From: Alphaproteobacteria bacterium
GTDB taxonomy: Bacteria > Pseudomonadota > Alphaproteobacteria > SP197
Assembly (NCBI GenBank): GCA_965228895.1
Contig: OZ245842.1
Location: forward strand, 352,001 to 416,000
Reading direction: 5' to 3'
DNA length: 64,000 nucleotides
Part shown: piece by piece, positions 14,728 to 50,667 of the stretch
Position numbering within the stretch: the stretch's first letter is position 1
Layout: each line of letters begins with the position of its first letter
Notes under the pieces: generated by a model
Told to the model about the DNA's origin: nothing
Databases searched by the model: none
Seen by the model: the letters and a program-made list of their open reading frames with translations, nothing else
Translations under genes and position numbers: made by a program

Positions 14728-14755
14728 ATTTTCCATAATGCAGAATATGGAACTT
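14728..14755 (-). other. dif-like XerC/D recombination site 1
   Basis: Minus strand AAGTTCCATAT-TCTGCA-TTATGGAAAAT (11-6-11). Confidence 0.65.
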
Positions 14756-15074
14756 ACGACTGTAGGCGGAGAGCCAATAGGTCAGTGTCCATCCTAGCTG
14801 ACGAAGTCATCAGAGATGAGAATAGGACGTGCGCCTCGTGATATTGATTCCACTTTGTTCGGGCGGAGATACCGATAACCTCTGACTCTTGTAGGAGTCC
14901 TAGCGCTCACCATTGTTAGGCAACCTGTCCCAATCGAACACTCTATCTGCCGATCGAGCCTTGACAGGCAGACCGGTCAGCCGGTGATCGGTTGTCATGT
15001 AGAATGTCCTGCGAACGATGTTGTCGTGTCTGTTTCGTTGCCTGGTGCGTGGACCAGCGACCGAAACGGGCCTG

Positions 15075-15385
15075 AGGGGATGTGCATTCGAGGTCGGCCG
15101 ATTGCGCCACAATCGCCTTGGCAAAACGGATACGTTGAACGTGTCATCGGGTCGATTCGACGCGATCTACTGAACCACTTTGTCGACGTAAACGAAGGAC
15201 ACCTCAGAAAACTGTTTCGCCGTAATGCCGACTACTAACAGCGGCTTTCGTACCAGTCTTGGATTGGCGAAAGACACCCCAGACTATCGACCCATTCAAT
15301 CGATTTGAAAGACCTCGTCACAGCAGTTCCTGGTGGCCTGCACCACGCCTAGTTGCGGATGGAGTAAACAGTAGGGACAGGTACT
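15075..15385 (+). pseudogene. Integrase-core (rve) IS transposase C-terminal remnant
   Basis: RPIAPQSPWQNGYVERVIGSIRRD, premature stop, then LAKDTP and GGLHH-like pieces. Confidence 0.8.
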
Positions 15386-15493
15386 AGCAACGCCTGACCT
15401 TGTCCTATGTCAGTTGAAAGAGCGCCCTATCTTCCGCCTTGCAAAACCGCAAACCTCGAGAACGTCGCGCACCACCTCCAGCATACTCGCACG

Positions 15494-16042
15494 TCAGCGT
15501 TGAGTCTTTGCGGTCAGATTTCCGCTTAACGGAACACCGTGCGCAACAGTCATCGCGTTCGGACTGAAGTTAACCGCCGCTTCCTGAATCTCCGCGAGTA
15601 ACTCGTCGTCGGCATCTGCGTCGACGACAATGTGATACTCCATGCCCAACATCTTTATCTCTGCGTCATCGCGCAGGTTCATGAAGCCTGCTAGATCGAG
15701 ACTTCCTCGCACGGTCACCTCGAGCGACCTGATCTCGACATTTTTGACAGACGCGTTGACGACGAAACCGACCATGATGCAGGCGCCGACACCCGACATC
15801 AGGTACTCCTGCGGCGTCGGTCCTTCGGAGTCGCCCAGCAGTTGGGGCGGCTCATCGACAACCCACGTAAACGGTCGAGGGATGATGTCGCTCCCGACCT
15901 TCATGTCGAGCGTCTTGACGTTGGCGCGCACACCCTGGTCCCAATCCAACGACACGCCATACTCGGCAATACCGTTGGCGGGATTCTGCCTGATGCTGTC
16001 CATGGCTTCGAAAAGCGATTTGGTGTCTACGTGGTTGAGCAT
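15494..16042 (-). CDS. OsmC-family protein
   Basis: DEPPQLLG..GPTPQEYL...GAC; second Cys position reads SPN. Confidence 0.85.
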   Translation of the reverse strand: MLNHVDTKSLFEAMDSIRQNPANGIAEYGVSLDWDQGVRANVKTLDMKVGSDIIPRPFTWVVDEPPQLLGDSEGPTPQEYLMSGVGACIMVGFVVNASVKNVEIRSLEVTVRGSLDLAGFMNLRDDAEIKMLGMEYHIVVDADADDELLAEIQEAAVNFSPNAMTVAHGVPLSGNLTAKTQR

Positions 16043-16082
16043 GATTCACTCCTATGACTCAGTTCAATGACCCTTGGACCAT

Positions 16083-16613
16083 TCAGGATTCGGAAGGTGG
16101 TGCCGGATACCACGATTCAGGTTCGGGAAACTCGAATCCGTCCGGAATAGTAAATGTCTCGATCGTCGTGCTGATCGCGTCTTCGGTCCCGAAGTAGGCC
16201 CACGGTATCTCGCCCTTCAACGACCCCGACTGGATCACGTCAAAGCCCCGGTCCTTGTACCCCGCAAGTCTCTCTTGCCAACTCAGGCCCGCACAATCGA
16301 CGGCGACGTGATGGATCCCTTCGCCATGGTCGTTGAGGAACTCGTGGTAGATCGTCCGCCCATGAAGCGGCTCAACCACCTCCCACATCATTTTTCCCGA
16401 GAAGGCGATGCAGAGTTTCATCGCAAAGTCTTCCGGCGCGCCCCGGTACATGAGATCGGTGTTGTTCTGTTTGTCGTATGTGTAGATTCGCCACGGTCCT
16501 ACGCCGAGCCGTGTCATGCCTTCGAGTGTTCGAAGATGATCGCGCGTTACGATGCAGACCTGGATCGTCTCGCCCAGAATGTTCGTCGGCATCAGGTTGG
16601 TGTCGTTGTTCAT
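16083..16613 (-). CDS. VOC-family protein (methylmalonyl-CoA epimerase/glyoxalase-like)
   Basis: GVGPW, WEVVEPLHG, EFLNDHGEGIHHVA; start taken at ATG 16613. Confidence 0.85.
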   Translation of the reverse strand: MNNDTNLMPTNILGETIQVCIVTRDHLRTLEGMTRLGVGPWRIYTYDKQNNTDLMYRGAPEDFAMKLCIAFSGKMMWEVVEPLHGRTIYHEFLNDHGEGIHHVAVDCAGLSWQERLAGYKDRGFDVIQSGSLKGEIPWAYFGTEDAISTTIETFTIPDGFEFPEPESWYPAPPSES

Positions 16614-16642
16614 CGTTTTGCCTCTCCTACGTTCGGCCTTGA

Positions 16643-17419
16643 TCACCAGGCCGTATAGCCGCCGTCGACGTGAAGGATCGTACCGGTGCAATAGCTTGAT
16701 GCGTCACTCGACAAGAACAGAACGGCGGAGGCGATCTCACGGGGTTCCGCTAAACGCCCCAAGGGCGTCATATCGACCCAGCGGTCAAACCAATCGGGGT
16801 TCTCTTCCTTCAACGGCAAGACCATGTCGGTCCCGACATATCCTGGCGCGACGGCATTGACCCGAACGTTGTCGGGCGCCAGCGCGCATGCGAGCGACTT
16901 CGTCAGCAGGTGTATGGCGCCCTTGCTGGCAATGTAGGGTACAGAGTTCTGTGGTCGAGAGGCGACGGTCCCGAGAATTGACCCGATGTTGACAATGCAA
17001 CCGCTTTTGCGCGCCGACATGTGCCGTCCGAAGGCCCGCGCACACCAGAAGGCTGCGTCGACATTTACGCTCATGGTGAGGTTCCATTCGTCGTCCGAGG
17101 TCGCCAGTGGGTCGGGAACGAACGCTACGCCGGCATTGTTGACCAAGATATCGACAGGACCTTCGTATGTGATTACCTCGTCTGCGACTTCTGTCACAAT
17201 CGAGGAATCCGTCACATTGACCCGGCGGCTCGTCGCCTCATATCCGGCATCGCGTAACTCAGCGACGGCCGCCATGCCGCTATCGGACTCCTTCTCGAGG
17301 ATCACGATCTTGGCGCCGGCCTCGGCGAGAGCTTGGCAAATCTCGCGTCCAATACCCCGACCGCCGCCGGTCACGACGGCGCGGCGATCGGTGAGACGGA
17401 AACCCTCCAGATACGACAT
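16643..17419 (-). CDS. Classical SDR oxidoreductase
   Basis: TGGGRGIG, NNAG, YIASK. Confidence 0.92.
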   Translation of the reverse strand: MSYLEGFRLTDRRAVVTGGGRGIGREICQALAEAGAKIVILEKESDSGMAAVAELRDAGYEATSRRVNVTDSSIVTEVADEVITYEGPVDILVNNAGVAFVPDPLATSDDEWNLTMSVNVDAAFWCARAFGRHMSARKSGCIVNIGSILGTVASRPQNSVPYIASKGAIHLLTKSLACALAPDNVRVNAVAPGYVGTDMVLPLKEENPDWFDRWVDMTPLGRLAEPREIASAVLFLSSDASSYCTGTILHVDGGYTAW

Positions 17420-17799
17420 CGCAGTATTCTCTACCTTCTCTGCGCGTTCTCACGACGAACAACTGTCTATGCCGCAGTGAAAGCTTGGCCGGATCCGCCG
17501 GTGGCAGGCTTCCGACTTATGCGCAGTTACGATAGGGCCTCCAAACAACGTTACAAAGGAAATTTCTGTTCATCAGATAAAATTATTGCCTAACAGAACT
17601 TTGATGTCCCATAATCTGTGGCATTTGAGACAAGGGGCTACAGGTCTTTGCCCGACCGGAGGTGTTCGTGCGGAACGCCCCCAGCGGAGCAGATAAAATG
17701 GTCTGCGAGGCAGAAACACATGCTGGCGCCGCGACGTTCGTGTTGCGGGGTTTCGACTTCAGCCAACCTTGAATCGATCGATTGGGGGTGCTGAAGTTG

Positions 17800-18236
17800 A
17801 TAATCGAAAGCACCATGCAGTCCGCCCGGCTGGACGTTGCGCGTCTGCTTCGATTGGCGCCGAACGGACGGGCGTCATACAGCATCACAAGATGGCGAAA
17901 CGGAGAGCCGGACACCGTTGGCTATGCCGCGGTGGTGTCCCGTGCCGCCAAGTCGCCGTCTGCGATGCGCGCGGCCGGCATCAGTTCCGGTGATGCGGTC
18001 GGGTCTTTCTGCTCAGCGGCGCTTGAACATGTCGAGTCAGCCTGCGGTATGGGCTTCGGGTGGCTTCAACCAAAGGTGATGGACTACCGCACGATGGCGT
18101 TTCCGTCGGTGAGATTCAGATCAGTGGCGCTTGGATGACAGCGTCTTACTTGGCGAGTTCATCCGATGAGCAGTCTGACAACCACTGACCAAGAACTGGT
18201 GGCACTGGTCCGAGCAGTCCGACTGGGCAAGTGACA
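17800..18236 (+). pseudogene. Possible N-terminal remnant of a fatty-acid-CoA ligase (FadD14/DmdB-like)
   Basis: ESTMQSARLDVARLLR...GYAAVVSRAAK..SAMRAAGISSGDAV..F....EH resembles the AMP-binding enzyme N-terminus; rest missing; lies upstream of an enoyl-CoA hydratase. Confidence 0.4.
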
Positions 18237-18282
18237 TTGACGAATCGAAGCAAGGCTATCGAACTGGAGAAGGACGAAAAAA

Positions 18283-19098
18283 ATGGGTGTCGCCGAAACT
18301 GAAGTGAAAAACAGTGTTGGTTGGATCACGATCAACCGTCCGAAGAAAGTCAATGCGCTCTCGTCCGAAACAGTCGGTGCCTTGAGGGAGGCCGTCGAGT
18401 CGTTCGAGGCTGACGAAGACGTCCGCGTCATTGTGCTGCGCGGCGCCGGCGACAATTTTTCCGTTGGCTACGACATCACCGAGGAGGTCGAGGCCGGTTT
18501 GTCCAAGCCCGAGGATTGGCACGGCGCGCTTTCTAACAATGTCGGGCTTTCCATGGCAGTTTGGTCGTCGACCAAACCTACCATCGCCGCCGTTGACGGA
18601 TGGTGTCTAGCGGGTGCCTGCGAGTTGGCGATGGCTTGTGATCTGATCGTTGCAAGCGACCGGGCAAAATTCGGAGAACCGGAGATACGATTTGGTTCGG
18701 GTCCGGTTACGTTGCTGATGCCCTTCGTGCTGGGCCAGAAAAAGACGATGGAATTGCTGCTAACCGGCGACACGATAGGTGCGGATGACGCGGAACGCTT
18801 CGGACTGATCAACAACGTGGTGTCGCCCGAAGCGTTGTTTGACACGGCCCAGGCGCTGGCAGAGAAAATCGCGCTTACGCCTTTGATCACGCTTCGCCTG
18901 ACCAAAATAGCGCTGACCCGGGCCTATGAGGCCATGGGACTCCGCAATGCCGTTAACGTCAACTTGGACTTGGCGGCGACGTTGAACGCTGCCGAGTCGC
19001 CCGAGAAGACACAGTTTGTGGATCTGGTTCGCTCCGAAGGTCTCCGCAAGGCCCTCGACTTTCGCGATCAGCGGTACGGTGCGCTTACAGAGGAGTAA
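18283..19098 (+). CDS. Enoyl-CoA hydratase/isomerase family protein
   Basis: NRPKKVNALS, FSVGYDI, AGACELAMACD, FGEPE. Confidence 0.92.
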   Translation: MGVAETEVKNSVGWITINRPKKVNALSSETVGALREAVESFEADEDVRVIVLRGAGDNFSVGYDITEEVEAGLSKPEDWHGALSNNVGLSMAVWSSTKPTIAAVDGWCLAGACELAMACDLIVASDRAKFGEPEIRFGSGPVTLLMPFVLGQKKTMELLLTGDTIGADDAERFGLINNVVSPEALFDTAQALAEKIALTPLITLRLTKIALTRAYEAMGLRNAVNVNLDLAATLNAAESPEKTQFVDLVRSEGLRKALDFRDQRYGALTEE

Positions 19099-19117
19099 CC
19101 GGGCGCGCTCGCGACAA

Positions 19118-19897
19118 TCAGTATGTCGCGTATCCACCATCGACATTGATTGACTGACCAACGATGTGCGGAGACGTCGCAAGAAAGACCACGAGTTCGC
19201 CCATATCCTCGGGCGTTTGCGGCTCGCCTTGGGGAAGCAGTGTTTCAATAAACCGCTCCCAGGCGTCATCGACGGTCTCGCCGTCGTTCCGCCACCGCGA
19301 TGCCAGGCCGTCATCGCTCATCCACATGGCCGTGCCCACCAAGCCCGGGCAGATCGCATTGATGCGAACACCTTTTCGGGCAAACTCCTTGGCGATCGAG
19401 TTGGTAAAGCCAACAACCGCGAACTTCGAGGCGCAGTAGTGTGAAAGCCCCGGAAACCCGATCTTGCCGGCGACGGAAGCGATATTGACGATGGCGCCGC
19501 CGCTCCGCGCCGACATCAATGCGGCCTCGGCCTTGCAACACAGATAGACGCTCTTGACGTTCACCGTCATGACGCGGTCCCACTCCGTCTCTTCCAGATC
19601 GCCGAGCTCGACCGCACCGACAACGCCGGCATTGTTCACGGCAATGTCGAGCTCGCCGAACTCGTCCAACGCCTTCTGCAACATGGTGTCGACCTGGCTG
19701 GCGCTGGTGACGTCGGCGTTGACGGCAACGGCCTGCGCGCCCGACGCTGAAAGATCCTTCGCCGTACTCTCCGCGGCGGCGCCATCGATGTCGGCAATGA
19801 CAACCTTCGCCCCTTCGCGCGCCAGGCACTCGGCAATACCCTTGCCGATTCCCCGACCAGCACCGGTAACCAACGCGACCCTGCCTTTCAGTTTCAT
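19118..19897 (-). CDS. SDR oxidoreductase, acetoin/butanediol dehydrogenase-like
   Basis: TGAGRGIG, YCASKFAV, ICPGLVGTAMW. Confidence 0.88.
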   Translation of the reverse strand: MKLKGRVALVTGAGRGIGKGIAECLAREGAKVVIADIDGAAAESTAKDLSASGAQAVAVNADVTSASQVDTMLQKALDEFGELDIAVNNAGVVGAVELGDLEETEWDRVMTVNVKSVYLCCKAEAALMSARSGGAIVNIASVAGKIGFPGLSHYCASKFAVVGFTNSIAKEFARKGVRINAICPGLVGTAMWMSDDGLASRWRNDGETVDDAWERFIETLLPQGEPQTPEDMGELVVFLATSPHIVGQSINVDGGYATY

Positions 19898-20299
19898 CTT
19901 CTACCCTCCCGTTTGTCCGTCATGTGGCGTTGCCGTCCAGGTGAGAAGCGTGCGCTATCGACGGCTATCAAGACCATCCCCGCTTTCACCGATGCAGCGG
20001 ACGACAAATGACGTCGCGCGACATCTGGCGAGCCGCGGGAGATGGTTTCGGTGAGTTTTCATAAGTGAGAAAACATTCCGTTTGTCAAGATTGGTAAGGG
20101 AGCCCTTGATCTTCGATCTGAAGACGTTTCGACGTGCAACTTGACCCACTCCACAGTCGCGGTAGTATCGTCTAGTAAATAAAAATATCGCTCACCGAAA
20201 TGACTGTGTTCGACGACGACTTCTTTGGACGAACAAAACGTGGGACAAAAACCCATGGATCGAAGGAAGAGTCATTTCCAACCTGATGGGAGAAAATCA

Positions 20300-21355
20300 A
20301 TGTCTGAAGAACGGCGAGAAGCTCAGGAAGTTGAAGCTGGTGAAATCGACCTAACCCGGCGCATGCTGCTTGGGAGCGGTGCCGCGCTTGGCGCCGCAGC
20401 CGCGGTCGGCGTGCCAAACTTTGCGTGGGCATCCGATAAGGATCCAAAGGATTTTCGTTTCGGCGTTTCGATTCCGTTCAGCGGACTTGACGCTTATCAA
20501 CATCTGATCCAAGGCTACGAGGCTGCCGTCAACGATCTGGGTGGCGACGTGACGATCGTTGAAGCCAACTATGACATCAAGAAACAGGCTGACCAGATTG
20601 CAACGATGGTTGCGTCCGGTGTCGATGCGGTCTGTGTCCTGCCGATCGATCCGGCGGGCATCTCAACCGCTGTGCAGGCGGCCGTCGAGTCCGGCACGCC
20701 GGTCTTCTCGACCAACTCGTATGTGCCGTACGCGACGACGGCCTCGACGTCGATCCACGACGGCTACGGCATGGGCGCGGCAACTGCGCGGTACCTCGTC
20801 AATCGTCTCGGCGGCCAAGGTAAGATCGGTATCATCACGTTGCCACTCAACGAAGGTTGGGCGACGCGTACGATGGGAATGGAGTTCGTCGTTCAGCAGT
20901 ATCCGGATATCGAGATCGTCACAGAGTGGCCGTTCGACGCGACACTAAAGGTCACCGCCCGCGAAGCGGTCGACAATATGCTGACAGCACATCCCGAGTT
21001 GAACGCCATATGGGCGTCATGGGACGGCGCAGCGATCGAAGCCACACTGGCCATGCGTTCGGCGGGACGCGACGATATGTTCGTGACCGGAAACGACGGC
21101 GGCCGCCAGGCATTCGAATACATCCAGGGGAATACGCAGTTCGAGTACACGGTGGTCCAGAGTTTCTTCCAGGAGTCGTATCACAGTATCTACTTCGCCC
21201 ACGAAGTTCTGCAGGGGCGACCTGCGCCGCGTATCGTCATCAACAAGACTTACGGTTGCGGACGAGAGGACTTGGAAGGCGTCGATCTGGATTCGATTGC
21301 CGACTACGATCGCTTCGGTCGCGCCGAGGAGATCGGTTGGGAACGGGTCGCTTAG
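20300..21355 (+). CDS. Sugar ABC (CUT2/RbsB-like) substrate-binding protein with Tat signal
   Basis: TRRMLLGSGAA twin-arginine leader; periplasmic binding fold motifs; ATG 20300 after GGGAGA. Confidence 0.85.
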   Translation: MSEERREAQEVEAGEIDLTRRMLLGSGAALGAAAAVGVPNFAWASDKDPKDFRFGVSIPFSGLDAYQHLIQGYEAAVNDLGGDVTIVEANYDIKKQADQIATMVASGVDAVCVLPIDPAGISTAVQAAVESGTPVFSTNSYVPYATTASTSIHDGYGMGAATARYLVNRLGGQGKIGIITLPLNEGWATRTMGMEFVVQQYPDIEIVTEWPFDATLKVTAREAVDNMLTAHPELNAIWASWDGAAIEATLAMRSAGRDDMFVTGNDGGRQAFEYIQGNTQFEYTVVQSFFQESYHSIYFAHEVLQGRPAPRIVINKTYGCGREDLEGVDLDSIADYDRFGRAEEIGWERVA

Positions 21356-21526
21356 CCTTGGCTCACTGATGTTCGGCCAGCCTGTGCCGCAATTCCCAGG
21401 TTGCGCTCGGCTGGCCGGGCACCAACGGCTCGAGATGGTCTTTTGTCCGCCGATGGCGCGGTGCGGCCAATGCGTCGCACCAACCTCGGCGCTGTAACTA
21501 TCACTTCACTCCTCTACTGTTGCCCC

Positions 21527-23041
21527 ATGACAGACGTTCTCAACATGACGGGCATGACCAAGCACTTCGGGTCAGTCGCCGCGCTTAGCAATGTTGACTT
21601 CTCGGTCGCCCCTGGGGAGATCCACGCGCTTTTGGGCGTCAACGGCGCCGGCAAGTCGACACTCGTCAAAATCATCTCCGGACTCTACGCCGCCGATGAA
21701 GGAGACATCCGGATCGACGGTGAGCTTAAGAGTATTCATTCACCTCGCGATGCAATTGACTGCGGGATCGCGTCGGTCCAACAACACCCGGAACTCGTCG
21801 GTAGTCTCTCTGGCTACGAGAACATCTTTCTGGGGCAGGAAGCCGACGATGGCGGTTTGTTCAGAAAGGTGAACCGGCAATCGATGAAAGCGCGGGCAGA
21901 GAAGCTGCTCGAGCGATTCCCGATTCCGATTGATCTGTCGACCAAACTCGAGGACATGGAGAGTGTCGAACGTGAAACCGTTGCCATTCTCCATGCGCTC
22001 AAACAAGAGCACACAAAACTGCTGATTCTCGACGAGCCGACATCGACATTGACGCAGACAGAGGCGAACAAGCTGTTCGACGTGATGCGGGCGCTCAAGC
22101 AGTCGGGAATCGGCATAATCTACATTACGCACCGACTGGAAGAGATTCGAGAGATCGCGGACAGGGTCACGATATTCCGTGACGGCAGGAGCGTTGCCGT
22201 GCTGGATGCCGGCGTCGAATCACTCGACGAAGCGGCTATCTCACGGCACATGCTGCAAGAGGAACTGGAAGAGCTGTTTCCTGCCAAAGGTGCCGCTGTC
22301 GGCGAAGACGAACCGCCTTTGTTGGAGGCGATCGATCTGGGAGTCGACGGCGCCTTTAACAACGTGAACCTGACGCTTAGGCGCGGCGAGATCGTTGGCG
22401 GCTTCGGTCTTGTCGGCTCTGGCGTCGAGGCCGTCGCAATGACGTTGTTCGGCGCCGTGCGGCCCACATCCGGCGAGATCAAAATCAAGGGCGAGACGGC
22501 GAACCTCAAAGGTCCGCGAGACGCACTAAGGAAGGGTATCTTTCTTGTCCCCGGCGATCGCAAGGCCGAGGGATTGACCCTGACAAAGACCATCACCTTC
22601 AACGTCACTCTCGCCAATCTTCAGCGCGCAACCTACCTCGGCGGGCTGTTGCGTCGTCGTCGCAATGTAGAGGACGTTGCCGGCATCTTGGAGGCGCTTG
22701 ATCTGCGTCCGCCGCAACTCTGGCGCCGGGCGTCGGAGTTCAGCGGTGGCAATCAGCAGAAGGTTGTTCTTGCGAAGGGCCTGTTCCGGAAGGCCGAGAT
22801 CTATGTCTTTGTCGAACCGACGGTCGGGGTCGACATCGGCGCACGCTCGAAGCTTTATGCCTTGATGCGCGAGCTGAGCAAGGAAGCCGCCGTTTTGATT
22901 TTGTCTTCGGATGTTGATGAAGTCTTCGGCGTCGCGGACAGCATTTTCGCGCTCTACCGGGGGCGGACGTCAATTCCGCAGTCCCGAGGCTCGTCTCGGG
23001 AAGCCCTGCTCTCAGGTGGTCTGATGGGTAGCATGCAATGA
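21527..23041 (+). CDS. Sugar ABC ATP-binding protein (RbsA-like)
   Basis: GVNGAGKST, LDEPT, FSGGNQQKV. Confidence 0.92.
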   Translation: MTDVLNMTGMTKHFGSVAALSNVDFSVAPGEIHALLGVNGAGKSTLVKIISGLYAADEGDIRIDGELKSIHSPRDAIDCGIASVQQHPELVGSLSGYENIFLGQEADDGGLFRKVNRQSMKARAEKLLERFPIPIDLSTKLEDMESVERETVAILHALKQEHTKLLILDEPTSTLTQTEANKLFDVMRALKQSGIGIIYITHRLEEIREIADRVTIFRDGRSVAVLDAGVESLDEAAISRHMLQEELEELFPAKGAAVGEDEPPLLEAIDLGVDGAFNNVNLTLRRGEIVGGFGLVGSGVEAVAMTLFGAVRPTSGEIKIKGETANLKGPRDALRKGIFLVPGDRKAEGLTLTKTITFNVTLANLQRATYLGGLLRRRRNVEDVAGILEALDLRPPQLWRRASEFSGGNQQKVVLAKGLFRKAEIYVFVEPTVGVDIGARSKLYALMRELSKEAAVLILSSDVDEVFGVADSIFALYRGRTSIPQSRGSSREALLSGGLMGSMQ

Positions 23042-25019: not shown

Positions 25020-25095
25020 AGCCGCAACACAATACAAAGAGCGTTCCGTTAGAGAACTACAACTATGCATTTCAGGCTGATCGATTGTATGAATA

Positions 25096-38671: not shown

Positions 38672-38696
38672 GGCGTTAGATCCGCAGTTGGGGCGA

Positions 38697-40294: not shown

Positions 40295-40348
40295 AGCCGG
40301 ACCTCCCTTCAGGTTTGTCGGAACAGCCTAATCCTCACTATGAAAATT

Positions 40349-40490: not shown

Positions 40491-40510
40491 GGAATGCTTT
40501 TCACGATGAC

Positions 40511-42852: not shown

Positions 42853-44813
42853 GCCACCCGCAGTTCCCGCATCTCTTCTCGCCCATCGAGATACGCGGTC
42901 GCGAGATCAAGAACCGGGTCTTCGTGCCCGGCCACAACACCGCATTGTCGGAAGGTGGCAAGATAGGCGACGCCATGATCGCCTATCACGAGGCGCGCAT
43001 GAAAGGCGGCGTCGGCATGATCATGACCGAGGTCCACTGTGTGCATCCAACCTACATGCCGCCGGGTCGTGCTTGGGCGACAAACGATGAGTGCCTGCCT
43101 GGACTGCGCCGTCTCGCCTTGAAGGGGCGTGACCATGGAGTCAGGATCATCGGTCAGGTGTTCCACCCCGGCCGCGTCGCGGCCGCTTCCGTCGACGGCA
43201 CCAAGATGGTGGCCTACGCGCCGTCGGAAGTGCCTGATGAGATGTACAAGACCGTGCCGACACCGCTTACCTGCGATCTTATCCGCGAGATCGTGGCGGC
43301 CCATGGCGACGGCGCCGCGCGCATGGCCGAGGCAGGATTGGATGGTGTCGAAATCATCTCCAGCATGGGCTATCTGGCCTCCCAATTCATCAATCCCCGT
43401 CTCAACCGACGTGACGACAAGTATGGCGGGTCGTTCGAAAACCGCATGCGTTTCGTGCGTGAGGTCGCCGCCGACATCCGCGCCAAGATCGGCGGCGACA
43501 TGATCCTGGGCCTGCGTATCTCCGCCGACGAGATGGACGAGGAAGGGCTCACCATCGAGGAGTCCCGCGAGGCCTGTGCCGCGCTCGATGCCGATGGCGT
43601 GCTCGACTACCTCAATATTGTTTTGGGCTCGACCGCGACTTACACGGGCTGGCAGCACATCATCCCGCACATGCAGTACGATGCCGGCTACACCGGCAAG
43701 AAGTCCGGCGCGCTCAAGGAAGCCGTCAAACGCGTCCCCGTCATGATCGCCGGCCGCATCAACCAGCCGCAAATCGCCGAACAGATTCTGGCCGAAGGCC
43801 AGGCCGATATGATCGGCATCGTGCGCGGCCATATCGCCGATCCCGACCTGGTGAGAAAAGCCAGTGAAGGACGCGTCGACGACATCCGCGCATGCATCGC
43901 ATGCGACCAGGCATGCATCGGTCACAGGCTCAAGGGTTTCCCGATCTCCTGCATCCAGTTCCCGGAGACCGGCCGCGAACTCTGCTTTGCCGCCAAACCC
44001 AGAGTCGACAGACAGCGCAAGGTGCTGGTGGTCGGCGGCGGGCCGGCGGGCATGAAGGCCGCCGCCGTCGCCGCCGAGCGTGGCCATAGCGTGACATTGA
44101 TGGAGAAGGCGACCCAACTGGGTGGCCAGGCGCTTGTTGCGCAGCTTCTGCCGGGACGCGCCGAGTTCGGCGGTATCGTCACCAACCTCCAGCGGGAGTG
44201 CGAGAGCCACGGCGTCGAGATCCGCCGTGGCGTCAACGTGACGAAGGAGATGGTCAAGGCCGAAGCGCCCGATGTGGTGATCGCCGCGACCGGCGCGACA
44301 GAGCGGCGCCCCGAATTGGAAGGCCTGGATGGCGCGCATGTGGTTGGCGCCTGGGGCGTCGCGCAGGGCACCGCCAATGTGGGTGGCAAGGTCGTGGTCT
44401 ATGACTGGCACGCGAACTGGATCGGGCTTGGCGTTGCCGAAAAACTGGCACGCGACGGCTGTTCGGTTCGGCTTTGCGTCAACGGGCCGATGCCCGGCGA
44501 ACACCTGCCGATGATGGTGCGTGACGGCTGGATGGGCCAGCTCCACAAGTTCGGCGTCGAGGTCATTCCCTATGCCCGGCTCTACGGCGCCGACGACACA
44601 AGCGTCTTCATGCAGCACGTCACGAGCGGCGAGCCGATCATCTGCGATGATGTCGAGACCCTGGTGCTCGCCACGCCGCATAAACGCGAGGCCGGACTGT
44701 GGGAATCACTTCATGACAGCGACTTGGAACTTCATCTGATCGGCGACGCATTGGCGCCACGTACTGCCGAAGAGGCGGTGTTGGAAGGCTTGCGTGCCGG
44801 ATTCGCGGTCTAG
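42849..44813 (+). CDS. OYE-family Fe-S flavoprotein (StcD/HpbA/DgcA-like)
   Basis: FHPGR, RDDKYGGSFENR, CIACDQACIGH...CIQ, GGGPAG; GTGA overlap with R6. Confidence 0.88.
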   Translation: MSHPQFPHLFSPIEIRGREIKNRVFVPGHNTALSEGGKIGDAMIAYHEARMKGGVGMIMTEVHCVHPTYMPPGRAWATNDECLPGLRRLALKGRDHGVRIIGQVFHPGRVAAASVDGTKMVAYAPSEVPDEMYKTVPTPLTCDLIREIVAAHGDGAARMAEAGLDGVEIISSMGYLASQFINPRLNRRDDKYGGSFENRMRFVREVAADIRAKIGGDMILGLRISADEMDEEGLTIEESREACAALDADGVLDYLNIVLGSTATYTGWQHIIPHMQYDAGYTGKKSGALKEAVKRVPVMIAGRINQPQIAEQILAEGQADMIGIVRGHIADPDLVRKASEGRVDDIRACIACDQACIGHRLKGFPISCIQFPETGRELCFAAKPRVDRQRKVLVVGGGPAGMKAAAVAAERGHSVTLMEKATQLGGQALVAQLLPGRAEFGGIVTNLQRECESHGVEIRRGVNVTKEMVKAEAPDVVIAATGATERRPELEGLDGAHVVGAWGVAQGTANVGGKVVVYDWHANWIGLGVAEKLARDGCSVRLCVNGPMPGEHLPMMVRDGWMGQLHKFGVEVIPYARLYGADDTSVFMQHVTSGEPIICDDVETLVLATPHKREAGLWESLHDSDLELHLIGDALAPRTAEEAVLEGLRAGFAV

Positions 44814-44831
44814 CCTCAAGGGCCGCGGCTG

Positions 44832-46796
44832 ATGACCGCGTTCCCCCATCTCTTCGATCCGCTCGAGATCCGCGGCCTCGATCTCAAGAACCGCATCGCC
44901 TTTGGTCCCCATGGCACCAGCCAGGGACGTACACCAGAGACGTTGCCGGACCTTGTCGCCTACCACGAAGCGCGGGCGAAGGGTGGTGTCGGTCTGATCA
45001 TTACCGAAGCCCATACGGTTCATGAAAGTTATGAGGTCCGCCACAGCCTGCTGGCTGTCAGCGACGATGACGCCATCCCCGAACTGCGTGCGATTGCCGA
45101 TGTCGCGCACAAGCATGGCGCGCGCATGTTCGGCCAGCTTTTTCACCCCGGCCGCGCCGTCGCCAACAGAAAGAATGGCGCTCTGCTGGCCGCCTACGCG
45201 CCCTCGGAGATCCCCGACGAACGCCATCACGTCATGCCTGCACCGATGTCTGAGATCATGATCCGCGATGTCATCCGTGCCTATGGCGCCGGCGCACGCC
45301 GTATGGCGGAAGCGGGCCTCGACGGTATCGAATACATGGTGTCGATGGGGTATCTGCCGGCGCAGTTCGTCAACCCGCGCGCCAACCAGAGAACCGATGC
45401 GTATGGCGGCAGCTTTGAGAACCGGTTGCGGTTTCTCACCGAATCACTCGCCGCCGTTCGCGATTCGGTCGGCGACGAAATCGTGGTCGGCATACGAATC
45501 TCCGTCGACGAGCTCGATCACGGTGGCCTCTCACCCGACGAGAGCATCGCCGTTTCCAAGGCGCTCGGTGACGCCGGGTTGATCGACTATGTCAACGTCA
45601 TCGGCGGGTCGGGCGCCTCGGTTGGCGGCGCCGTTCATATCGTACCGCCGATGTTTGTCGATCAGGCCTACCTGGCCGATGACGCGGCACGGCTGAAACA
45701 GACTGTCGGTCTGCCGACCTTGCTGGGCGGGCGCATCAACCAGCCGCAGTCAGCGGAGCAGGTCGTGGCGTCGGGCCAGGCCGACATGGTCTGCCTCGTG
45801 CGGGCCCTTATCTGCGATCCGTTCTTTGCGGCGAAGGCGGGGCGTGGCGAGGCCGATGACATCCGCGCCTGCATCGGCTGCAACCAGGCCTGCATCGGAC
45901 ACCGGCACATGGGCGCGATCGTCTCGTGTATCCAGCACCCGGAGACAGGCCGTGAGCGCACGTTTCCGCACGACAAGTCGAAAGCGGCGGCGTCACGTCG
46001 GATTATGGTCGTTGGCGGCGGTCCCGGCGGCATGAAGGCTGCCGCCATCGCGGCGGAACGTGGGCATGACGTCGCGCTTTATGAGAAGGCAGACCAGCTC
46101 GGCGGGCAGGCTCTGTTGGCACAGATGTTGCCGGAGCGCGTGGAGTTCGGCGGTATCGTCACCAACCTTACGCGCGAAATGGATCGCTGCGGCGTCGCCG
46201 TCAACAAGGGCGTGACGGTCGATGCCGCGATGGTTGAACGCGAGGCGCCTGATGCCGTCATCGTGGCAACCGGCGCGACGCCCTACCTTCCCAAGCTGGA
46301 GGGGCTGGACGAGACCCACGCGGTCGACGCCTGGTCCGTGATCAAGGGCGAAGCCAATGTGGGCGGACGCGTCGTCATCGCCGACTGGCGTTGCGATTGG
46401 GTTGGTATGGGTGTGGCGGAGATGCTGGCCCGCAACGGCTGCCATGTGCGCCTCTATTGCCAGGGCGTCATGCCCGGACAAAACCTGCAGGCCTATCTGC
46501 GCGATCACTGGATAGGGGTCCTGGACAGCCTGGGTGTTGAGACCAGGGCCTACGTGCGTTTGTTCGGCGCCGCCGTCGACAGCGTCTACTTTCAACACAT
46601 GACCAACGGCGAGGCAATTGTCGCCGACGACGTCGAGACCCTGGTCCTGGCGCAAGGCCACAGACGGGAGGCGGTGTTGGCCGAGACACTGGCGCAGTTC
46701 TGGGCCGGCGAGTTGCATGTTATCGGCGATGCGCTGTCCCCGCGCACGGCAGAAGAGGCGGTTATGGAGGGGCTTCAGGCAGCCATGGTGCTCTAA
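44832..46796 (+). CDS. OYE-family Fe-S flavoprotein (StcD/HpbA/DgcA-like), second paralog
   Basis: FHPGR, RTDAYGGSFENR, CIGCNQACIGH...CIQHPETGRE, GGGPGG. Confidence 0.88.
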   Translation: MTAFPHLFDPLEIRGLDLKNRIAFGPHGTSQGRTPETLPDLVAYHEARAKGGVGLIITEAHTVHESYEVRHSLLAVSDDDAIPELRAIADVAHKHGARMFGQLFHPGRAVANRKNGALLAAYAPSEIPDERHHVMPAPMSEIMIRDVIRAYGAGARRMAEAGLDGIEYMVSMGYLPAQFVNPRANQRTDAYGGSFENRLRFLTESLAAVRDSVGDEIVVGIRISVDELDHGGLSPDESIAVSKALGDAGLIDYVNVIGGSGASVGGAVHIVPPMFVDQAYLADDAARLKQTVGLPTLLGGRINQPQSAEQVVASGQADMVCLVRALICDPFFAAKAGRGEADDIRACIGCNQACIGHRHMGAIVSCIQHPETGRERTFPHDKSKAAASRRIMVVGGGPGGMKAAAIAAERGHDVALYEKADQLGGQALLAQMLPERVEFGGIVTNLTREMDRCGVAVNKGVTVDAAMVEREAPDAVIVATGATPYLPKLEGLDETHAVDAWSVIKGEANVGGRVVIADWRCDWVGMGVAEMLARNGCHVRLYCQGVMPGQNLQAYLRDHWIGVLDSLGVETRAYVRLFGAAVDSVYFQHMTNGEAIVADDVETLVLAQGHRREAVLAETLAQFWAGELHVIGDALSPRTAEEAVMEGLQAAMVL

Positions 46797-46870
46797 CCGC
46801 TTTTTGATTTCGGTATAGCTCAGCCCTACGATGGCGACAGTACTGATCGCAGGCCTTGAGGAGTAACAAC

Positions 46871-47494
46871 TTGGCAGCCAAAGCAGCCGTTCTGCCTGAG
46901 GAAACACAAGGCGCGCTGACCTTAGGCGCGGAGATCCGCGCCTTGCGTAAGGTGAAGGGTCTGACGCTGACCGATCTGGCAGAGAAGACTGGCAAATCAA
47001 TTGGGTATCTAAGTCAGGTCGAACGCGACATCACCAAACCGAACGTCAAGGTTTTGCAGGAAATCGCCGATGCGTTGGGCGTCGACAACGGCTGGTTCTA
47101 TCCGCCCGGGGAGAGCGCGGACCCACGTGAGAAAAGGTTCATTGTGCGCGCCCGCAACCGGCGCCAGCTTTCGTATTCGCGCCTCGGTCAGGCCGATTAT
47201 CTCGGCATGAGCGACTATTTGCTGTCGTCAAATCTGGAAGGGCAGCTTGTCATTGGCATCAGCACGCTCCACCCCGGCTGTTCGTCCGGCGATGACGGTT
47301 ACAGCCACGACGGTGAAGAAGCGGGCTATGTCATGGAGGGCCGCCTCGAGCTGACGATTGATGGCGAGACCTTCACGCTGGAAGCGGGCGACAGCTATTC
47401 GTTTCCCAGCCACCACAGTCACCGGTTTCACAATCCGACGTCGCAGAACACGGTCTTCCTGTGGGCCAATACGCCGATCTCGTTTCACTACTGA
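46871..47494 (+). CDS. XRE HTH plus cupin transcriptional regulator
   Basis: SIGYLSQVERD HTH; HDGEEAGYV...H.F.N cupin; TTG after GAGGAG. Confidence 0.9.
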   Translation: MAAKAAVLPEETQGALTLGAEIRALRKVKGLTLTDLAEKTGKSIGYLSQVERDITKPNVKVLQEIADALGVDNGWFYPPGESADPREKRFIVRARNRRQLSYSRLGQADYLGMSDYLLSSNLEGQLVIGISTLHPGCSSGDDGYSHDGEEAGYVMEGRLELTIDGETFTLEAGDSYSFPSHHSHRFHNPTSQNTVFLWANTPISFHY

Positions 47495-47564
47495 TTGACA
47501 CGTGCTGTGTCGACACGCCGACACTTGCGTAGGCCATCATGGCAATCGCCTGATTCATCGTTTG

Positions 47565-47779
47565 AATTCCCTGATGCGGCGGAAGATTTCCCAGTTGTAT
47601 CGAGAAAATTCCCTGTTCCGTCGCGTAGGGAATTCGCCGCTAACGTGCTGAAATTGCTGGGGGAACTTCACCAGAAAGCTGGATTTTGGACGGAATACGA
47701 TGAATTTCCCTGTATTTTCCCTGTTAACAGGGAAATCGCGGCAGAGACAGGTTCGCTCGAGACTGCCCGCACCACGACC
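47565..47779 (+). repeat. TTCCCTG-box element, copy B, abutting dif-like site 4
   Basis: TTCCC(T/A)G at 47567, 47588, 47609; same TTCCCTGTTCCGTCGCGTAGGGAA block and TTTCCCTGTTAACAGGGAAA palindrome as copy A. Confidence 0.85.
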
Positions 47780-47807
47780 ATATTCCATAATGCAGATTAT
47801 GAACTCC
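47780..47807 (-). other. dif-like XerC/D recombination site 4
   Basis: Minus strand GGAGTTCATAA-TCTGCA-TTATGGAATAT. Confidence 0.7.
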
Positions 47808-48013
47808 TTGGCCTGAGCGTGCAGCTGACGGTCCAAGGCATTCTAGTCTTTTCGTCCAGAGACGATTTCTCCGGTGCAGGTTCAAATCAGCCCGCATCCG
47901 AACACGATGCCAGACCGGTGTACAAGCGGTCGAATGGCAACGTCGGCTTCGGGCCCAAGTTGCCGACTTGCTGCATCGTGCCGGATGTCTGGACGCAGAT
48001 GTCGTCGAAGTGG

Positions 48014-48922
48014 CTAACCTCTACGCGGTCTCCTGAGATCGTCGTTCAGCATGTCAATGAAGCGGCGGACCCGCGGCTCCAACAGGCGTTTGTGGGGGTA
48101 AAGCGCGATGATGGGTACCGTGCCGAAATCGACCTGCGGCAGAACATGTTCAAGTCGACCATCTGCCATGTCCGTGCTCACCAAAAGCCGCGGCAACAAT
48201 GCAATTCCAAGCCCGGCCAGAGCAGCTTCGCGCAGGGCTTCGGCACTATCAAGGCGGAGGCGAACACGCCCTTGGACGCGGGCCCAACTGCCATCCACCT
48301 CCTTAAGGTACCAGCCTTGCCTATCCCCTCGACTTGCAAACTGAAGCAGCTCGTGAACACCTAGTTGTTCTGCTGTCAAAGGCCTATCGGATCCCGAAAA
48401 ATAGGCTGGGGCCGCGCAAAGAAGCGCTACGTCGACCAAAAGCGTTCGCGTTATGAAGCTTTGGTCAGGTGAGCGCACACCGATACGGATCGCCAGGTCG
48501 AAGCCTTTCTCTATGATGTTGTCGACCCGGTCCGAGAAACTCATCTCGATCTGAGTTTCGGGCCAGCGCTCTAGAAATCGGCGAACAGTCGGCAGCAGCA
48601 GTCTGCGTCCAAGGGCGTCAGGCGCAGTGACTCGCAGCGTCCCGCGAGGGACACCGCGGTTACCCGCGATACTATTGTCAACGTCCTCAATCGCCGCGCG
48701 GATGGCCAGACCATGTTCGTAAAGGCGCTGGCCTTCCTCCGTCAGGTCAAGCGCGCGGGTGGTGCGGTTTAGGAGCCGCGCGCCGTAACCGTCCTCCAGC
48801 CGCGCAATCGCCTTTCCTGCAGTCGAGCGCGACAAGCCGAACGCCTTGCCGCCGGCGACGAAACTTCCGCTTTCGACAACTGAAAGGAACACGAGGATAT
48901 CGTTCACCTTCGATCCGATCAT
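48014..48922 (-). CDS. LysR-family transcriptional regulator (CrgA-like)
   Basis: GSFVAGG...LLNRTTRALDLTEEG; FDLAIR. Confidence 0.92.
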   Translation of the reverse strand: MIGSKVNDILVFLSVVESGSFVAGGKAFGLSRSTAGKAIARLEDGYGARLLNRTTRALDLTEEGQRLYEHGLAIRAAIEDVDNSIAGNRGVPRGTLRVTAPDALGRRLLLPTVRRFLERWPETQIEMSFSDRVDNIIEKGFDLAIRIGVRSPDQSFITRTLLVDVALLCAAPAYFSGSDRPLTAEQLGVHELLQFASRGDRQGWYLKEVDGSWARVQGRVRLRLDSAEALREAALAGLGIALLPRLLVSTDMADGRLEHVLPQVDFGTVPIIALYPHKRLLEPRVRRFIDMLNDDLRRPRRG

Positions 48923-49024
48923 GGCACCCTCTTTGTGGACTGTTAATCGCTTCTATCACGAAACCAATTCGTCAATTGTTATCGCTATATGTGCTGACAT
49001 GACAGTTGATGAAAGGAGAGAGAC

Positions 49025-49432
49025 ATGTCCGCTTCAGTTGTTCGCATGAATCCGAAGACCCTGCCTGATACCGGCAAAGTCGGATACTCGCAGATCTCCA
49101 TCGCACAACCCGGGCGCTTAGCCTTCGTGTCCGGCCAGGTGGCCTGGCCCGACGAGGGCGGCGATGTTCCCGGATCGTTGGCCGAGCAGACCGCTATTGT
49201 GATCAAAAACCTGAATGGTGCTTTGGATGCCCTTGAGGCTACCCCTGACGACATTGTCCAGATGCGCGTCTATGTGACCGACTTGCGGTCCGAGACACGA
49301 GAGATCGCAATGACAGAGATCTTGCGCTTTCTCGAGGGCGCACAGCCCAGTCTCACAGGCATTGGCGTCGCCGCTCTGGCAGCACCTGACCTTCAGATCG
49401 AAGTTGAAATGGTGGTGCAGGTCGCAGCCTGA
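49025..49432 (+). CDS. RidA/YjgF-family protein
   Basis: GYSQ, FVSGQV, IGVAALAAPDLQIEVE. Confidence 0.88.
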   Translation: MSASVVRMNPKTLPDTGKVGYSQISIAQPGRLAFVSGQVAWPDEGGDVPGSLAEQTAIVIKNLNGALDALEATPDDIVQMRVYVTDLRSETREIAMTEILRFLEGAQPSLTGIGVAALAAPDLQIEVEMVVQVAA

Positions 49433-49592
49433 CACCGATCGAGGAGGGCACAATGACGACTGCACCCTCCAAACTCGACCTTGTTCGAAGCCGACGTGAC
49501 GGGCTGGTGACCATCGCTGCCACTTAAGCTGCCGCCACACTCCCGGACACGGCTTCACTCAAACTGAACCTGACCTGAAAGGGCCTGCTGAA

Positions 49593-50423
49593 ATGTCTAG
49601 CATCACCACCACCGACGGAACTGAAATCTTCTATAAGGACTGGGGTCCGAAGGACGCTCAACCCATCGTGTTCCACCACGGCTGGCCGCTAAGCAGCGAT
49701 GACTGGGACAACCAGATGCTGTTCTTCGTTTCAAAAGGCCACCGCGTCATTGCCCATGACCGTCGCGGGCATGGGCGGTCGAGCCAGACCGACGTCGGCC
49801 ATGGCATGGAGACCTATGCCGCGGACGTGACCGAACTTGTCATGGAACTGGATCTGACAAACGCGGTTCACATCGGCCACTCGACGGGTGGCGGTGAAGT
49901 CGCGCGGTACGTGGCCCGGGCGCAACCCGGTCGTGTTGCCAAAGCAGCACTGCTTGGGGCGATCCCGCCCTTGATGCTGAAGACCGACGCAAACCCCAAC
50001 GGCATTCCGATGGAGATTTTTGACGGCTTCCGCACCGCACTTGCGGCAAACCGATCGCAGTTCTTCCTCGATGTTCCGTCGGGGCCCTTCTTCGGCTTCA
50101 ACCGCGAAGGCTCTGAGATTAGCCAGGGTTTGATCCAGAACTGGTGGCGCCAGGGCATGATGGGTAGTGCCTCCGCACAATATCAGTGCATCGCTGTGTT
50201 CTCGGAAACCGACCAGACCGCGGACCTCAAAGCGATCAACGTTCCGGTTCTCGTGATGCATGGCGAAGATGACCAGGTCGTGCCCATTGCGAACTCTGCG
50301 CTCAAGGCGGTCAAGCTGCTGAAGAACGGGACGTTGAAGACCTATGATGGCTTGTCACACGGTTTCTTCGCGACGCATCCTGATGAGGTCAACGCCGATC
50401 TGCTGGACTTTGTTGAGAGCTGA
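49593..50423 (+). CDS. Non-heme haloperoxidase/arylesterase (alpha/beta hydrolase)
   Basis: FYKDWG, HHGWPLSSDDW, DRRGHGRS, GHSTGG, DDQVVP. Confidence 0.92.
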   Translation: MSSITTTDGTEIFYKDWGPKDAQPIVFHHGWPLSSDDWDNQMLFFVSKGHRVIAHDRRGHGRSSQTDVGHGMETYAADVTELVMELDLTNAVHIGHSTGGGEVARYVARAQPGRVAKAALLGAIPPLMLKTDANPNGIPMEIFDGFRTALAANRSQFFLDVPSGPFFGFNREGSEISQGLIQNWWRQGMMGSASAQYQCIAVFSETDQTADLKAINVPVLVMHGEDDQVVPIANSALKAVKLLKNGTLKTYDGLSHGFFATHPDEVNADLLDFVES

Positions 50424-50639
50424 CAAAAACCAAATTGCCGGGCAGGAAGGATAGCCGGGCAATGCAACCGTTCGGATTGGAAACCCTCGAGGCAAGACGG
50501 CCATCACCTTACTTCGGCGTATTGTTTGGTCCCATACCGATGCCTACGAAACGGTTCTCTCCCGAACTTGCCGTTGTTCGAAACGCCGCCTGCTCGTAGT
50601 GATGGTGGCGAGCCAGCGATCTAAATTTGCACCGTGTGT

Positions 50640-50667
50640 ATTTTCCGTAATGCAGATTATGGGGCCG
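50640..50667 (-). other. dif-like XerC/D recombination site 5
   Basis: Minus strand CGGCCCCATAA-TCTGCA-TTACGGAAAAT. Confidence 0.65.

Follow-up and report, generated by a model that had tools for sequence, protein, structure and literature searches.

Dif-like sites of one orientation bound catabolic modules in tRNA-anchored arrays of an alphaproteobacterial genome and may be targets of the host XerC/XerD

How are large blocks of catabolic genes gathered at a chromosomal locus that has no integrase of its own? The question is raised by a 64,000-nucleotide stretch of DNA (the window), which occupies positions 352,001–416,000 of the single 5.53-Mb contig (62.4% guanine plus cytosine, GC) of an alphaproteobacterium, as its permuted tmRNA indicates, called G000 below, and in which a 28-bp motif built like dif, the site at which XerC/XerD act, recurs five times. 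A reading made from the window's letters alone (hereafter the sequence-only reading) had proposed that host XerC/XerD accrete or shuffle catabolic modules between these motifs, like an integron lacking an integrase. Our analysis leads to a related proposal: the modules may be elements that exploit Xer, comparable to the integrative mobile elements exploiting Xer (IMEX), at a secondary dif-type site linked to tRNA genes, and the host XerC and XerD would be the agents of module gain and loss. On the genome comparisons described here, we give this reading a probability of roughly 45%.

To define the sites, we used as query the 19-mer TTCCATAATGCAGANTATG, which comprises the conserved arm, the spacer and the inner part of the second arm, and accepted up to 3 mismatches. 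The window contains five matches, all on the + strand, at 14731, 29801, 31038, 47783 and 50643, where 0.04 is expected by chance; five matches were reached in 0 of 100 shuffles. The 28-mers of the sequence-only reading begin 3 nt before these positions, so its five co-oriented motifs are borne out. The layout is 11-6-11, namely ATTTTCCATAA, the spacer TGCAGA, and TTATG followed by 6 variable bases; only at 31038 does the spacer read TGTAGA, and the contig of a closely related strain has C at 31048, restoring TGCAGA there. As had also been described, on a gene map based on open reading frames all five sites are intergenic, three of them (29801, 47783 and 50643) are flanked by convergent gene pairs, and the right-hand neighbour gene is on the minus strand in every case. 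The modules between them are 15,070, 1,237, 16,745 and 2,860 bp long, and a check with Pfam agreed with the contents earlier assigned to them.

The same query finds 20 matches in the whole genome, 18 of which fall in two arrays: array A has 14 sites on the + strand between 345,428 and 561,841, and array B has four on the − strand between 4,224,340 and 4,295,113. The remaining two, both on the − strand (2,268,582 and 2,598,520), lie near the terminus and are dif itself and one dif-like site, a distribution unlike the genome-wide scatter of an operator. When 4 mismatches are allowed, six more matches appear, one being a palindromic re-reading of site 383,038 and the others five lone sites that we took as chance. 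Array A lies downstream of a tRNA-Met gene (321,892–321,968, + strand) and array B downstream of a tRNA-Ser-GGA gene (complement of 4,310,749–4,310,838). All 18 array sites have the orientation of the tRNA at the head of their array, and all are intergenic, mostly at the 3′ ends of genes. The GC content of the arrays is 59.4% and 58.4%, against 62.4% for the genome. The window lies within a genomic island of about 240 kb that begins at the tRNA-Met gene, and a second island, of about 97 kb, begins at the tRNA-Ser gene. Across the arrays the modules span 1.2–36 kb and hold 1–15 genes or more, on both strands, many with a regulator of their own (IclR, LysR or XRE types were seen). The distal end of array A was not found: the tRNA-Met neighbourhood is a different one in each of the family genomes examined, and the rest of contig C4 of the congeneric genome G002 is unrelated. 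The sequence-only reading had missed this set of 18 sites, the start of the arrays at tRNA genes, and the composite repeat of about 330 bp that terminates in window site 29801 and, in a second copy, in window site 47783.

What kind of site the repeated core is can be judged against the chromosomal dif of the same genome. The match at 2,268,582 reads ATTTTCCATAA-TATATA-TTATGCGACTT and lies between convergent genes, 88 kb from the maximum of the cumulative GC skew (2,356,452). A pattern scan of the family gives a match in 31 of 33 genomes, mostly as a single site of the form TTCCATAA-TATA[TC][AC]-TTATG, and on this ground we identify 2,268,582 as the conserved chromosomal dif. The consensus of the array sites shares with it all 11 bases of the XerD arm and the 5 inner bases of the XerC arm (TTATG), which upholds the dif-type nature of the motif; the earlier match of 9 of 11 bases to the Escherichia coli XerD arm depends on what we take to be the E. 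coli dif, and the 11-of-11 match to the genome's own dif is the stronger. The spacers differ, TGCAGA being present in 15 of the 18 array sites as against TATATA in the host dif, and the outer part of the second (XerC) arm is variable among the array sites, with a weak consensus of its own. Within the sites, conservation is highest over the 22 bases that make up the dif-type core with its spacer, rather than over the tRNA-like part described below. An invariant spacer combined with a variable outer XerC arm is what strand exchange in the spacer would predict.

In the family scan, numerous TGCAGA sites were found only in G000 and G002. The exact TGCAGA 19-mer occurs in 14 stretches of a species-representative genome collection; it stands with a dif-like XerC arm (TTATGCGA...) once each in records of Aquamicrobium, Chelativorans and a Hyphomicrobiaceae metagenome-assembled genome (MAG), and is followed by a TTATGTG... 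arm in an Azospirillum record. Two of these four loci carry a homologue of a gene that lies 1.6 kb from the dif of G000. The TGCAGA core looks like the chromosomal dif of these four other Alphaproteobacteria, with synteny backing two of the assignments, and because the same 19-mer stands as a dif-like site in other Alphaproteobacteria, the core would represent a natural type of Xer substrate. One MAG labelled Hyphomicrobiales has four TGCAGA sites, two of them with the tRNA-like flank.

Other dif-like sites were seen outside the arrays. At 2,598,512–2,598,542 (minus strand) G000 has a second site with both arms of the chromosomal dif and the spacer TGTAGC, 330 kb from dif, in the same orientation and on the opposite side of the GC-skew maximum. 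The genomes G003, G014, G041, G042 and G045 have, besides the chromosomal dif, near-perfect palindromic sites of the form TT[AG]CATAAT-N5-ATTATG[TC]AA, possibly further Xer sites that belong to plasmids or integrated elements.

The array sites are not all alike outside the core. Ten of the 18 are full, and the other eight consist of the core only or have a decayed flank. To the left of its core, a full site has a segment of about 35 nt, similar to the T-arm plus acceptor 3′ strand of a tRNA and terminated by CACC(A/G)CCA, and an arm of about 250 bp, which thus stands on the XerD side. The TCCCTG boxes of this arm form a group of three in 21-bp phase (about −212, −191 and −170) and a pair in 11-bp phase (about −73 and −62), and the arm also has inverted copies of the box, including a hairpin with a variable loop. 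In the Met-type junction the XerD arm begins at CCA; in the Ser-type junction the 3′ trailer of tRNA-Ser-GGA (GTCTCC) plus about 10 nt lies between CCA and the XerD arm. Ser-type sites (501,920 and 527,048) occur within the tRNA-Met array and a Met-type site (4,237,514) within the tRNA-Ser array. The right flanks are of type a (a conserved stretch of about 50–110 nt), of type b (with a hairpin), or of other kinds. Since the left types (none, Met-type full arm, Ser-type full arm) pair freely with the right types (a, b, other) across the core, the part common to the recombining partners would be the core. In window coordinates the site features are as follows.

14697–14727, left of core 1: decayed tRNA-3′-end-like segment without the hairpin, about 35 nt (nhmmer model positions 42–99)
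14728–14755, + strand: dif-like core 1, with XerD-type arm, TGCAGA and ATATGGAACTT; right flank of type a
29580–29797, + strand: accessory arm of site 2, then the tRNA-3′-end-like segment ending ...CACCACCA
29589, 29610 and 29631 (21-bp phase), 29728 and 29739 (11-bp phase): TCCCTG boxes in the arm of site 2
29749: inverted box (CAGGGA) in the arm of site 2
29798–29825, + strand: dif-like core 2, a full, Met-type site
31035–31062, + strand: dif-like core 3, core only, spacer TGTAGA
47565–47779, + strand: accessory arm and tRNA-like segment of site 4, with TCCCTG boxes at 47568, 47610, 47707 and 47718 and an inverted box at 47728
47780–47807, + strand: dif-like core 4, a full, Met-type site
50640–50667, + strand: dif-like core 5, core only, arm ATTTTCCGTAA; right flank of type b with a hairpin

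The flank and the core have different distributions. The initial ~71-nt stretch of the repeat, which stops precisely at CCA, is present in 7 of 41 relatives (G000 included), in 6 of 33 genomes of the order and in 30 of 401 sampled genomes of the class, at 73–92% identity and often in several copies and at contig ends, and in the other genomes of this class sample that carry it no dif-like sequence was found after CCA. To judge from this distribution, the arm with its tRNA-like segment is older and more widespread than the core. In the window, the ~71-nt element (29728–29800), for which Rfam has no family, comprises a pair of direct TTCCCTGT boxes, a hairpin and a tail like a tRNA 3′ end that ends in CCA; in the genome G030 further boxes reach about 200 bp leftward and stand inverted on the right.

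Several other identities for the repeat were tried and rejected. It is not a tRNA or tmRNA gene, as aragorn finds none in the window or in 20 class-level loci, and a tmRNA origin fails because the acceptor piece of permuted tmRNA is unrelated to the tRNA-like segment. Nor is it protein-coding, since its copies differ by 1-nt indels. Rfam gives nothing at the gathering threshold for the window, and region 29600–29950 has only a meaningless match (E = 5.3); a small RNA was rejected because of this lack of a match and because, on a visual reading of the alignments, the hairpin stem is kept in sequence and not by covariation. The 266-bp composite repeat has zero matches in plasmid and phage collections, and two patterns that run from the tRNA-like end into the core each gave 0 stretches in scans of metagenomes.

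Which recombinase could act at the core? A six-frame search with PF00589, which reads through stops, finds four tyrosine recombinases in the genome and none in 322–562 kb or 4.21–4.31 Mb; in the ~340 kb of the arrays it detected neither an integrase nor a remnant of one. The absence of an integrase of their own, proposed for the five-site region, therefore extends to both arrays, and xerC (852,958–853,848) and xerD (1,050,313–1,051,218) lie elsewhere. Their products find their best matches in the XerC and XerD models, at 318 and 324 bits, slightly under the equivalog cut-offs, and the other two tyrosine recombinases are the integrases of islands at different tRNAs. The integron-integrase models TIGR02249 and NF011946 match only XerC and XerD, at 75–121 bits as against cut-offs of 265 and 435. 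XerC/XerD are the best candidates because the array sites have the arm of the host dif, because the same core serves as a dif-like site elsewhere, because the spacer is private to the arrays and the flanks combine freely, and because the arrays contain no other tyrosine recombinase.

Serine recombinases are present as well. PF00239 has four matches in the genome, two of which are the large serine recombinase (LSR) elements at the heads of the arrays; a different serine recombinase (4,292,693–4,294,255), accompanied by two ParB-like genes, lies in a module of array B and is directed away from the site. An LSR gene encoding 569–577 aa with Resolvase and Recombinase domains lies within about 0.3 kb of the 3′ end of each of three tRNA genes, and the three LSRs are mutually 49–50% identical. 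In G000 coordinates the three elements are:

321,969–345,427: tRNA-Met LSR element
4,295,132–4,310,748: tRNA-Ser(GGA) LSR element
from 875,635 onward: tRNA-Ser(CGA) LSR element, of which the LSR alone was identified

In the first two the LSR gene is followed by genes for a terminase large subunit, a DUF5681 protein and a ParB-N6-methylase and then by defence-type cargo, which in the tRNA-Met element includes an OLD-family ATPase/TOPRIM protein with a UvrD helicase (Gabija-like), a RES toxin domain and a STAND NTPase. All three look like phage-satellite-like defence islands. Because the first two terminate exactly at the first dif-like core of their array, they must have been inserted between the tRNA and that core.

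A comparison with relatives shows how the modules vary. In G002, the core starts 5 nt after the tRNA-Met gene and is followed by an orthologue of the Rieske oxygenase module (G000 383,520–399,798; 79–84% identity) and a full site, then by an orthologue of G000 451,292–463,291 (84%), another full site, about four modules specific to G002 and, after these, an orthologue of G000 514,677–526,763. The G000 modules at 345–383 kb and 399.8–451.3 kb have no counterpart in G002. Unique and shared modules are interleaved, and the differences coincide with the sites, so the accretion that the sequence-only reading had envisaged finds support in these congeneric genomes; its shuffling does not, since the order is colinear. 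The shared modules are 79–84% identical, against 81–90% for the flanking core genome, and since they are about as diverged as the core genome the arrays must be old; at this divergence the G000 and G002 copies are too different for a crossover to be placed inside a site. The block 31520–47494 of the window recurs in two congeneric genomes, G001 and G002, in other contexts, and of the three contexts in which this Rieske block is found, two are bounded by dif-like sites. The tRNA-Met locus has many different downstream neighbours across the family (13 loci examined), and in G041, of another genus, a degenerate dif-like sequence stands immediately after tRNA-Met. We also placed on window 29400–49300 the assembled contigs from three related runs that contained at least half of the words. 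One related strain has the same order across 29770–34664, and the listed contig joints have short sides and derive from paralogues.

The mechanism that we favour would run as follows. A circular module would carry one dif-type core, and in about half of such circles the core would stand beside the ~250-bp TCCCTG-box arm and the tRNA-3′-end-like segment. The host XerD would bind the conserved arm and XerC, more weakly, the variable one, and strands would be exchanged in the TGCAGA spacer with a resident TGCAGA core of the array, whose founder would be the core that immediately follows the tRNA. Recombination between direct cores would excise modules and integration at any core would insert them, giving interleaved gain and loss, and the difference between the TGCAGA and TATATA spacers would bar productive recombination between the arrays and the terminus. 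An accessory protein may bind the arm and free the reaction from FtsK, as may be compared with the accessory sequences at cer and psi. Xer binding and catalysis, the circular intermediates and the role of the arm are what we infer. The presence of many cores in each array implies that both recombining partners carry a core, which is not the product of a serine integrase. A fuller version, in which the arrays belong to an undescribed Xer-exploiting cassette system with a private tRNA-linked TGCAGA site insulated from dif, an arm borrowed from a class-wide serine-recombinase family and integron-like arrays of up to 240 kb, is one that we put forward tentatively, as a possibility.

Several observations weigh against recombination by XerC/XerD at these sites. 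Known FtsK-independent Xer reactions start with XerC, and here it is the XerC arm that is degenerate; similarly, the accessory sequences of cer and psi stand on the XerC side, whereas the arm here stands on the XerD side. A XafT-like activator was sought with DUF3653 (PF12375) and no match was found in the genome. In many Alphaproteobacteria the arm and the tRNA-like segment are found with no dif-like core beside them, and an LSR gene often follows. G000 and G002 have their modules in colinear order, and homologous recombination between the repeats of about 100–330 bp could, through differential deletion, account for much of the variation. Homology of the Rieske block starts 460 bp (G000) and 164 bp (G002) to the right of the core, its left border being off the core because G000 has an extra cupin gene. 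In G001, a congeneric genome in 500 contigs, neither end of the Rieske block (TauD to XRE-cupin) shows a recognisable site; on contig C76 this 16-kb Rieske/flavoprotein block lies between a homologue of the last gene before G000 site 561,841 and a homologue of G000 DNA at 3.77 Mb, which is either a true third context or a mis-join of the MAG. Finally, the contigs from the related runs stop inside the repeat (29729–29756 and 47708–47733), so that junctions of excision or of circles are not visible in them.

The LSR genes point to another account, which we consider unlikely: the modules would be decayed LSR elements stacked at a tRNA gene, the arm with its tRNA-like segment would be their distal (P) end, as members of a widespread LSR family that inserts immediately behind a tRNA-like ...CCA end, and the core would be the other side of the LSR crossover, and Xer would not be involved. 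This would agree with the LSR genes close behind tRNA-Met, tRNA-Ser(GGA) and tRNA-Ser(CGA) and with the exact end of the first two elements at a first core. It would also agree with G030, in which five of the eight tRNA-like copies are followed within 1–1.5 kb by an LSR gene pointing to the junction and TTCCCTG boxes stand on both sides of the tRNA-like junctions, and with G222, in which the single copy is followed by an LSR gene in the same way; in the class sample, an LSR gene or a C-terminal remnant lies within 3 kb of 3 of 20 copies. However, serine integration makes no target duplication and thus cannot yield a dif-like core at each junction. An LSR gene is in the canonical position at none of the 18 dif-like junctions, being present at the three tRNA-proximal elements, and the serine recombinase of the one module that has such a gene is of a different kind and faces away. 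The core does not resemble the left ends of real LSR elements (ACTAG..., NNAAGTCT...), eight sites have the core without the arm, and the dyad symmetry of the core and its 16-base identity with dif would be left unexplained. A different history, quite unlikely in our view, would make the arrays the relic of classical tRNA islands, laid down by successive tyrosine-integrase elements that have lost their integrases, the sites being inert scars and the differences between genomes arising by homologous recombination or deletion.

Such a relic would account for the tRNA anchoring, the direct repeats resembling tRNA 3′ ends, the arm boxes like those of a lambda-type attP and the low GC, as well as for the colinear order and the old divergence of the modules, and the tRNA-Met locus, with its varied neighbours, is indeed a hot spot across the family; island growth of this kind is reported in a preprint on tycheposons (bioRxiv 10.1101/2020.12.28.424599). 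Yet the search through stop codons detected no integrase or remnant in ~340 kb, the strongest conservation is in the 22-base core with its spacer and not in the tRNA-like part, and, after a crossover within the tRNA, the tRNA-like segment would be unable to rebuild tRNA-Met. A relic would also concentrate the differences at the head of the array, whereas unique and shared modules are interleaved. There is, lastly, the idea that the repeat has nothing to do with recombination and is a regulatory or structural element (an operator, a terminator-like 3′ element or a repeat of the repetitive extragenic palindromic type) whose palindromic form is a coincidence. The core is an imperfect palindrome, and the full sites, which contain a hairpin, come after the 3′ end of a gene with the same orientation, as this would suggest. 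What makes it very improbable to us is that all copies are co-oriented and confined to two tRNA-anchored islands, that most sites stand between gene ends and not upstream of genes, that the spacer is invariant, the arm is that of dif and Rfam gives no match, and that the sites coincide with module borders between genomes.

If XerC/XerD do recombine these sites, a housekeeping recombinase pair builds large catabolic islands at tRNA genes without an element-encoded integrase, and Xer hijacking extends beyond phages at dif and the small resistance modules of Acinetobacter. The private spacer would then be a simple rule that separates module traffic from the resolution of chromosome dimers. Because the composite site joins a Xer core to an LSR-associated arm, it offers a testable case of an element family that switches its integration machinery. 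Even if they are inert now, the sites precisely mark the borders of modules in about 340 kb of acquired DNA. What the modules in the window contain, in window coordinates, is as follows.

1–14727: distal part of the module begun at genome site 345,428, outside the window; its last gene encodes a Rieske oxygenase (13164–14309)
14756–29579: module 1, about 15 kb, with OsmC, a glyoxalase, two SDRs, an enoyl-CoA hydratase, a sugar-type ABC transporter, IclR and AcoA/AcoB/AcoC-like proteins
29826–31034: module 2, 1.2 kb, with pdxJ (30056–30826, minus strand) as its sole gene
31063–47564: module 3, about 16.7 kb, with an EutQ-like cupin, TauD, three Rieske oxygenases, OYE-type flavoproteins, a class II aldolase, IclR, OpuAC and XRE-cupin
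47808–50639: module 4, 2.9 kb, with a LysR regulator, a RidA-family protein and an alpha/beta hydrolase
50668–64000: start of the next module, which reaches to genome site 427,148; its first gene encodes a molybdopterin oxidoreductase (50848–53028, minus strand)

Within module 3, the stretch 31522–46796 combines three Rieske oxygenases with TauD, two to three OYE-type flavoprotein oxidoreductases and an OpuAC betaine-binding protein, a gene set that suggests the demethylation of quaternary amines or osmolytes; its flavoprotein has many paralogues in G000. Two further tRNA-linked loci were seen elsewhere in the genome. At a distance of 59 kb downstream from tRNA-Ser(CGA) stands an isolated remnant of the tRNA-like segment (934,746–934,783), with a strongly degraded dif-like sequence behind it; a third island, of 55.1% GC, may have its distal end here. 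At 5,244,200–5,259,836, two tRNA-Thr(CGT) genes 15.5 kb apart enclose a tyrosine integrase gene (5,258,486–5,258,983); this is an ordinary tRNA-duplicating island with no relation to the dif-like arrays.

How, then, do the arrays compare with known systems? Like sedentary chromosomal integrons, they are long one-directional arrays of cargo punctuated by a repeated recombination site, with gain and loss of cassettes. Unlike integrons, they have a double-stranded dif-type core and no intI that we could find (no attC search was made), and in place of promoterless, co-oriented cassettes of a single open reading frame they contain units of 1–15 or more genes on both strands with regulators of their own. 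The sites also recall cer and psi, in which a Xer core is joined to about 200 bp of conserved one-sided sequence with phased protein-binding boxes, and between such sites direct repeats would favour deletion. The accessory sequences of cer and psi bind PepA with ArgR or ArcA, and the XerD arm here, TTATGGAAAAT, is close to what we take to be the cer arm. The arm of our sites differs in lying on the XerD side and in being present in only 10 of the 18.

As in tRNA islands, the arrays start at tRNA genes and are punctuated by segments like tRNA 3′ ends, none of which aragorn calls a tRNA. In tycheposons, as the preprint describes them (bioRxiv 10.1101/2020.12.28.424599), islands likewise grow at tRNA genes by successive integrations, with partial-tRNA repeats between cargo modules, the newest element adjoins the tRNA, as the LSR element does here, and the cargo includes nutrient, catabolic and defence genes. 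They differ in that tycheposons carry their own tyrosine or large serine recombinase, which here only the tRNA-adjacent element does (one module excepted), and in that their repeat is a true partial tRNA, whereas the conserved repeat here is a dif-type core.

Closer to our arrays are the linear chromosomal dif module islands of Acinetobacter, reported in 2026 (Front Microbiol 2026, PMC12907356), in view of which the sequence-only reading's statement that no such case had been described was too strong, even if the architecture is another. According to that report, they too are linear arrays of several modules delimited by 28-bp Xer-type sites and located apart from the main dif, their modules lack a recombinase, and the mechanism is likewise only inferred. 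Their sites alternate between C/D and D/C, whereas those here are all direct (14 on the + strand, 4 on the −) and tRNA-anchored, and their modules are mostly small resistance, toxin-antitoxin or insertion sequence units shared with plasmids, as against catabolic operons in modules of up to 36 kb here (PMC12907356). The host here is an alphaproteobacterium, unlike Acinetobacter, and the composite repeat has no relative in plasmid or phage collections. A literature search on dif-like sites, Xer cassettes, IMEX and LSR islands found no description of tRNA-anchored dif-like arrays or of such a composite site.

The nearest comparison for our favoured reading is with the IMEX, represented by CTX-phi, TLC-phi and VGJ-phi of Vibrio and by the gonococcal genetic island. 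IMEX integrate at the chromosomal dif in the terminus and their cargo is phage genomes, whereas the modules here contain catabolic operons and the arrays, at 0.35–0.56 and 4.21–4.31 Mb, lie beside tRNA genes about 1.9–2.0 Mb from dif (2.27 Mb; skew maximum 2.36 Mb). The sites here further differ in having a spacer other than that of the host dif, a degenerate XerC arm and, in about half, the arm with the tRNA-like segment, and no DUF3653 gene was found in the genome. What the two share is the lack of an integrase of their own (apart from the one array B module with a serine recombinase), sites that imitate the host dif with 11-6-11 XerC/XerD arms, one of them degenerate, and the arrangement of direct sites in tandem arrays.

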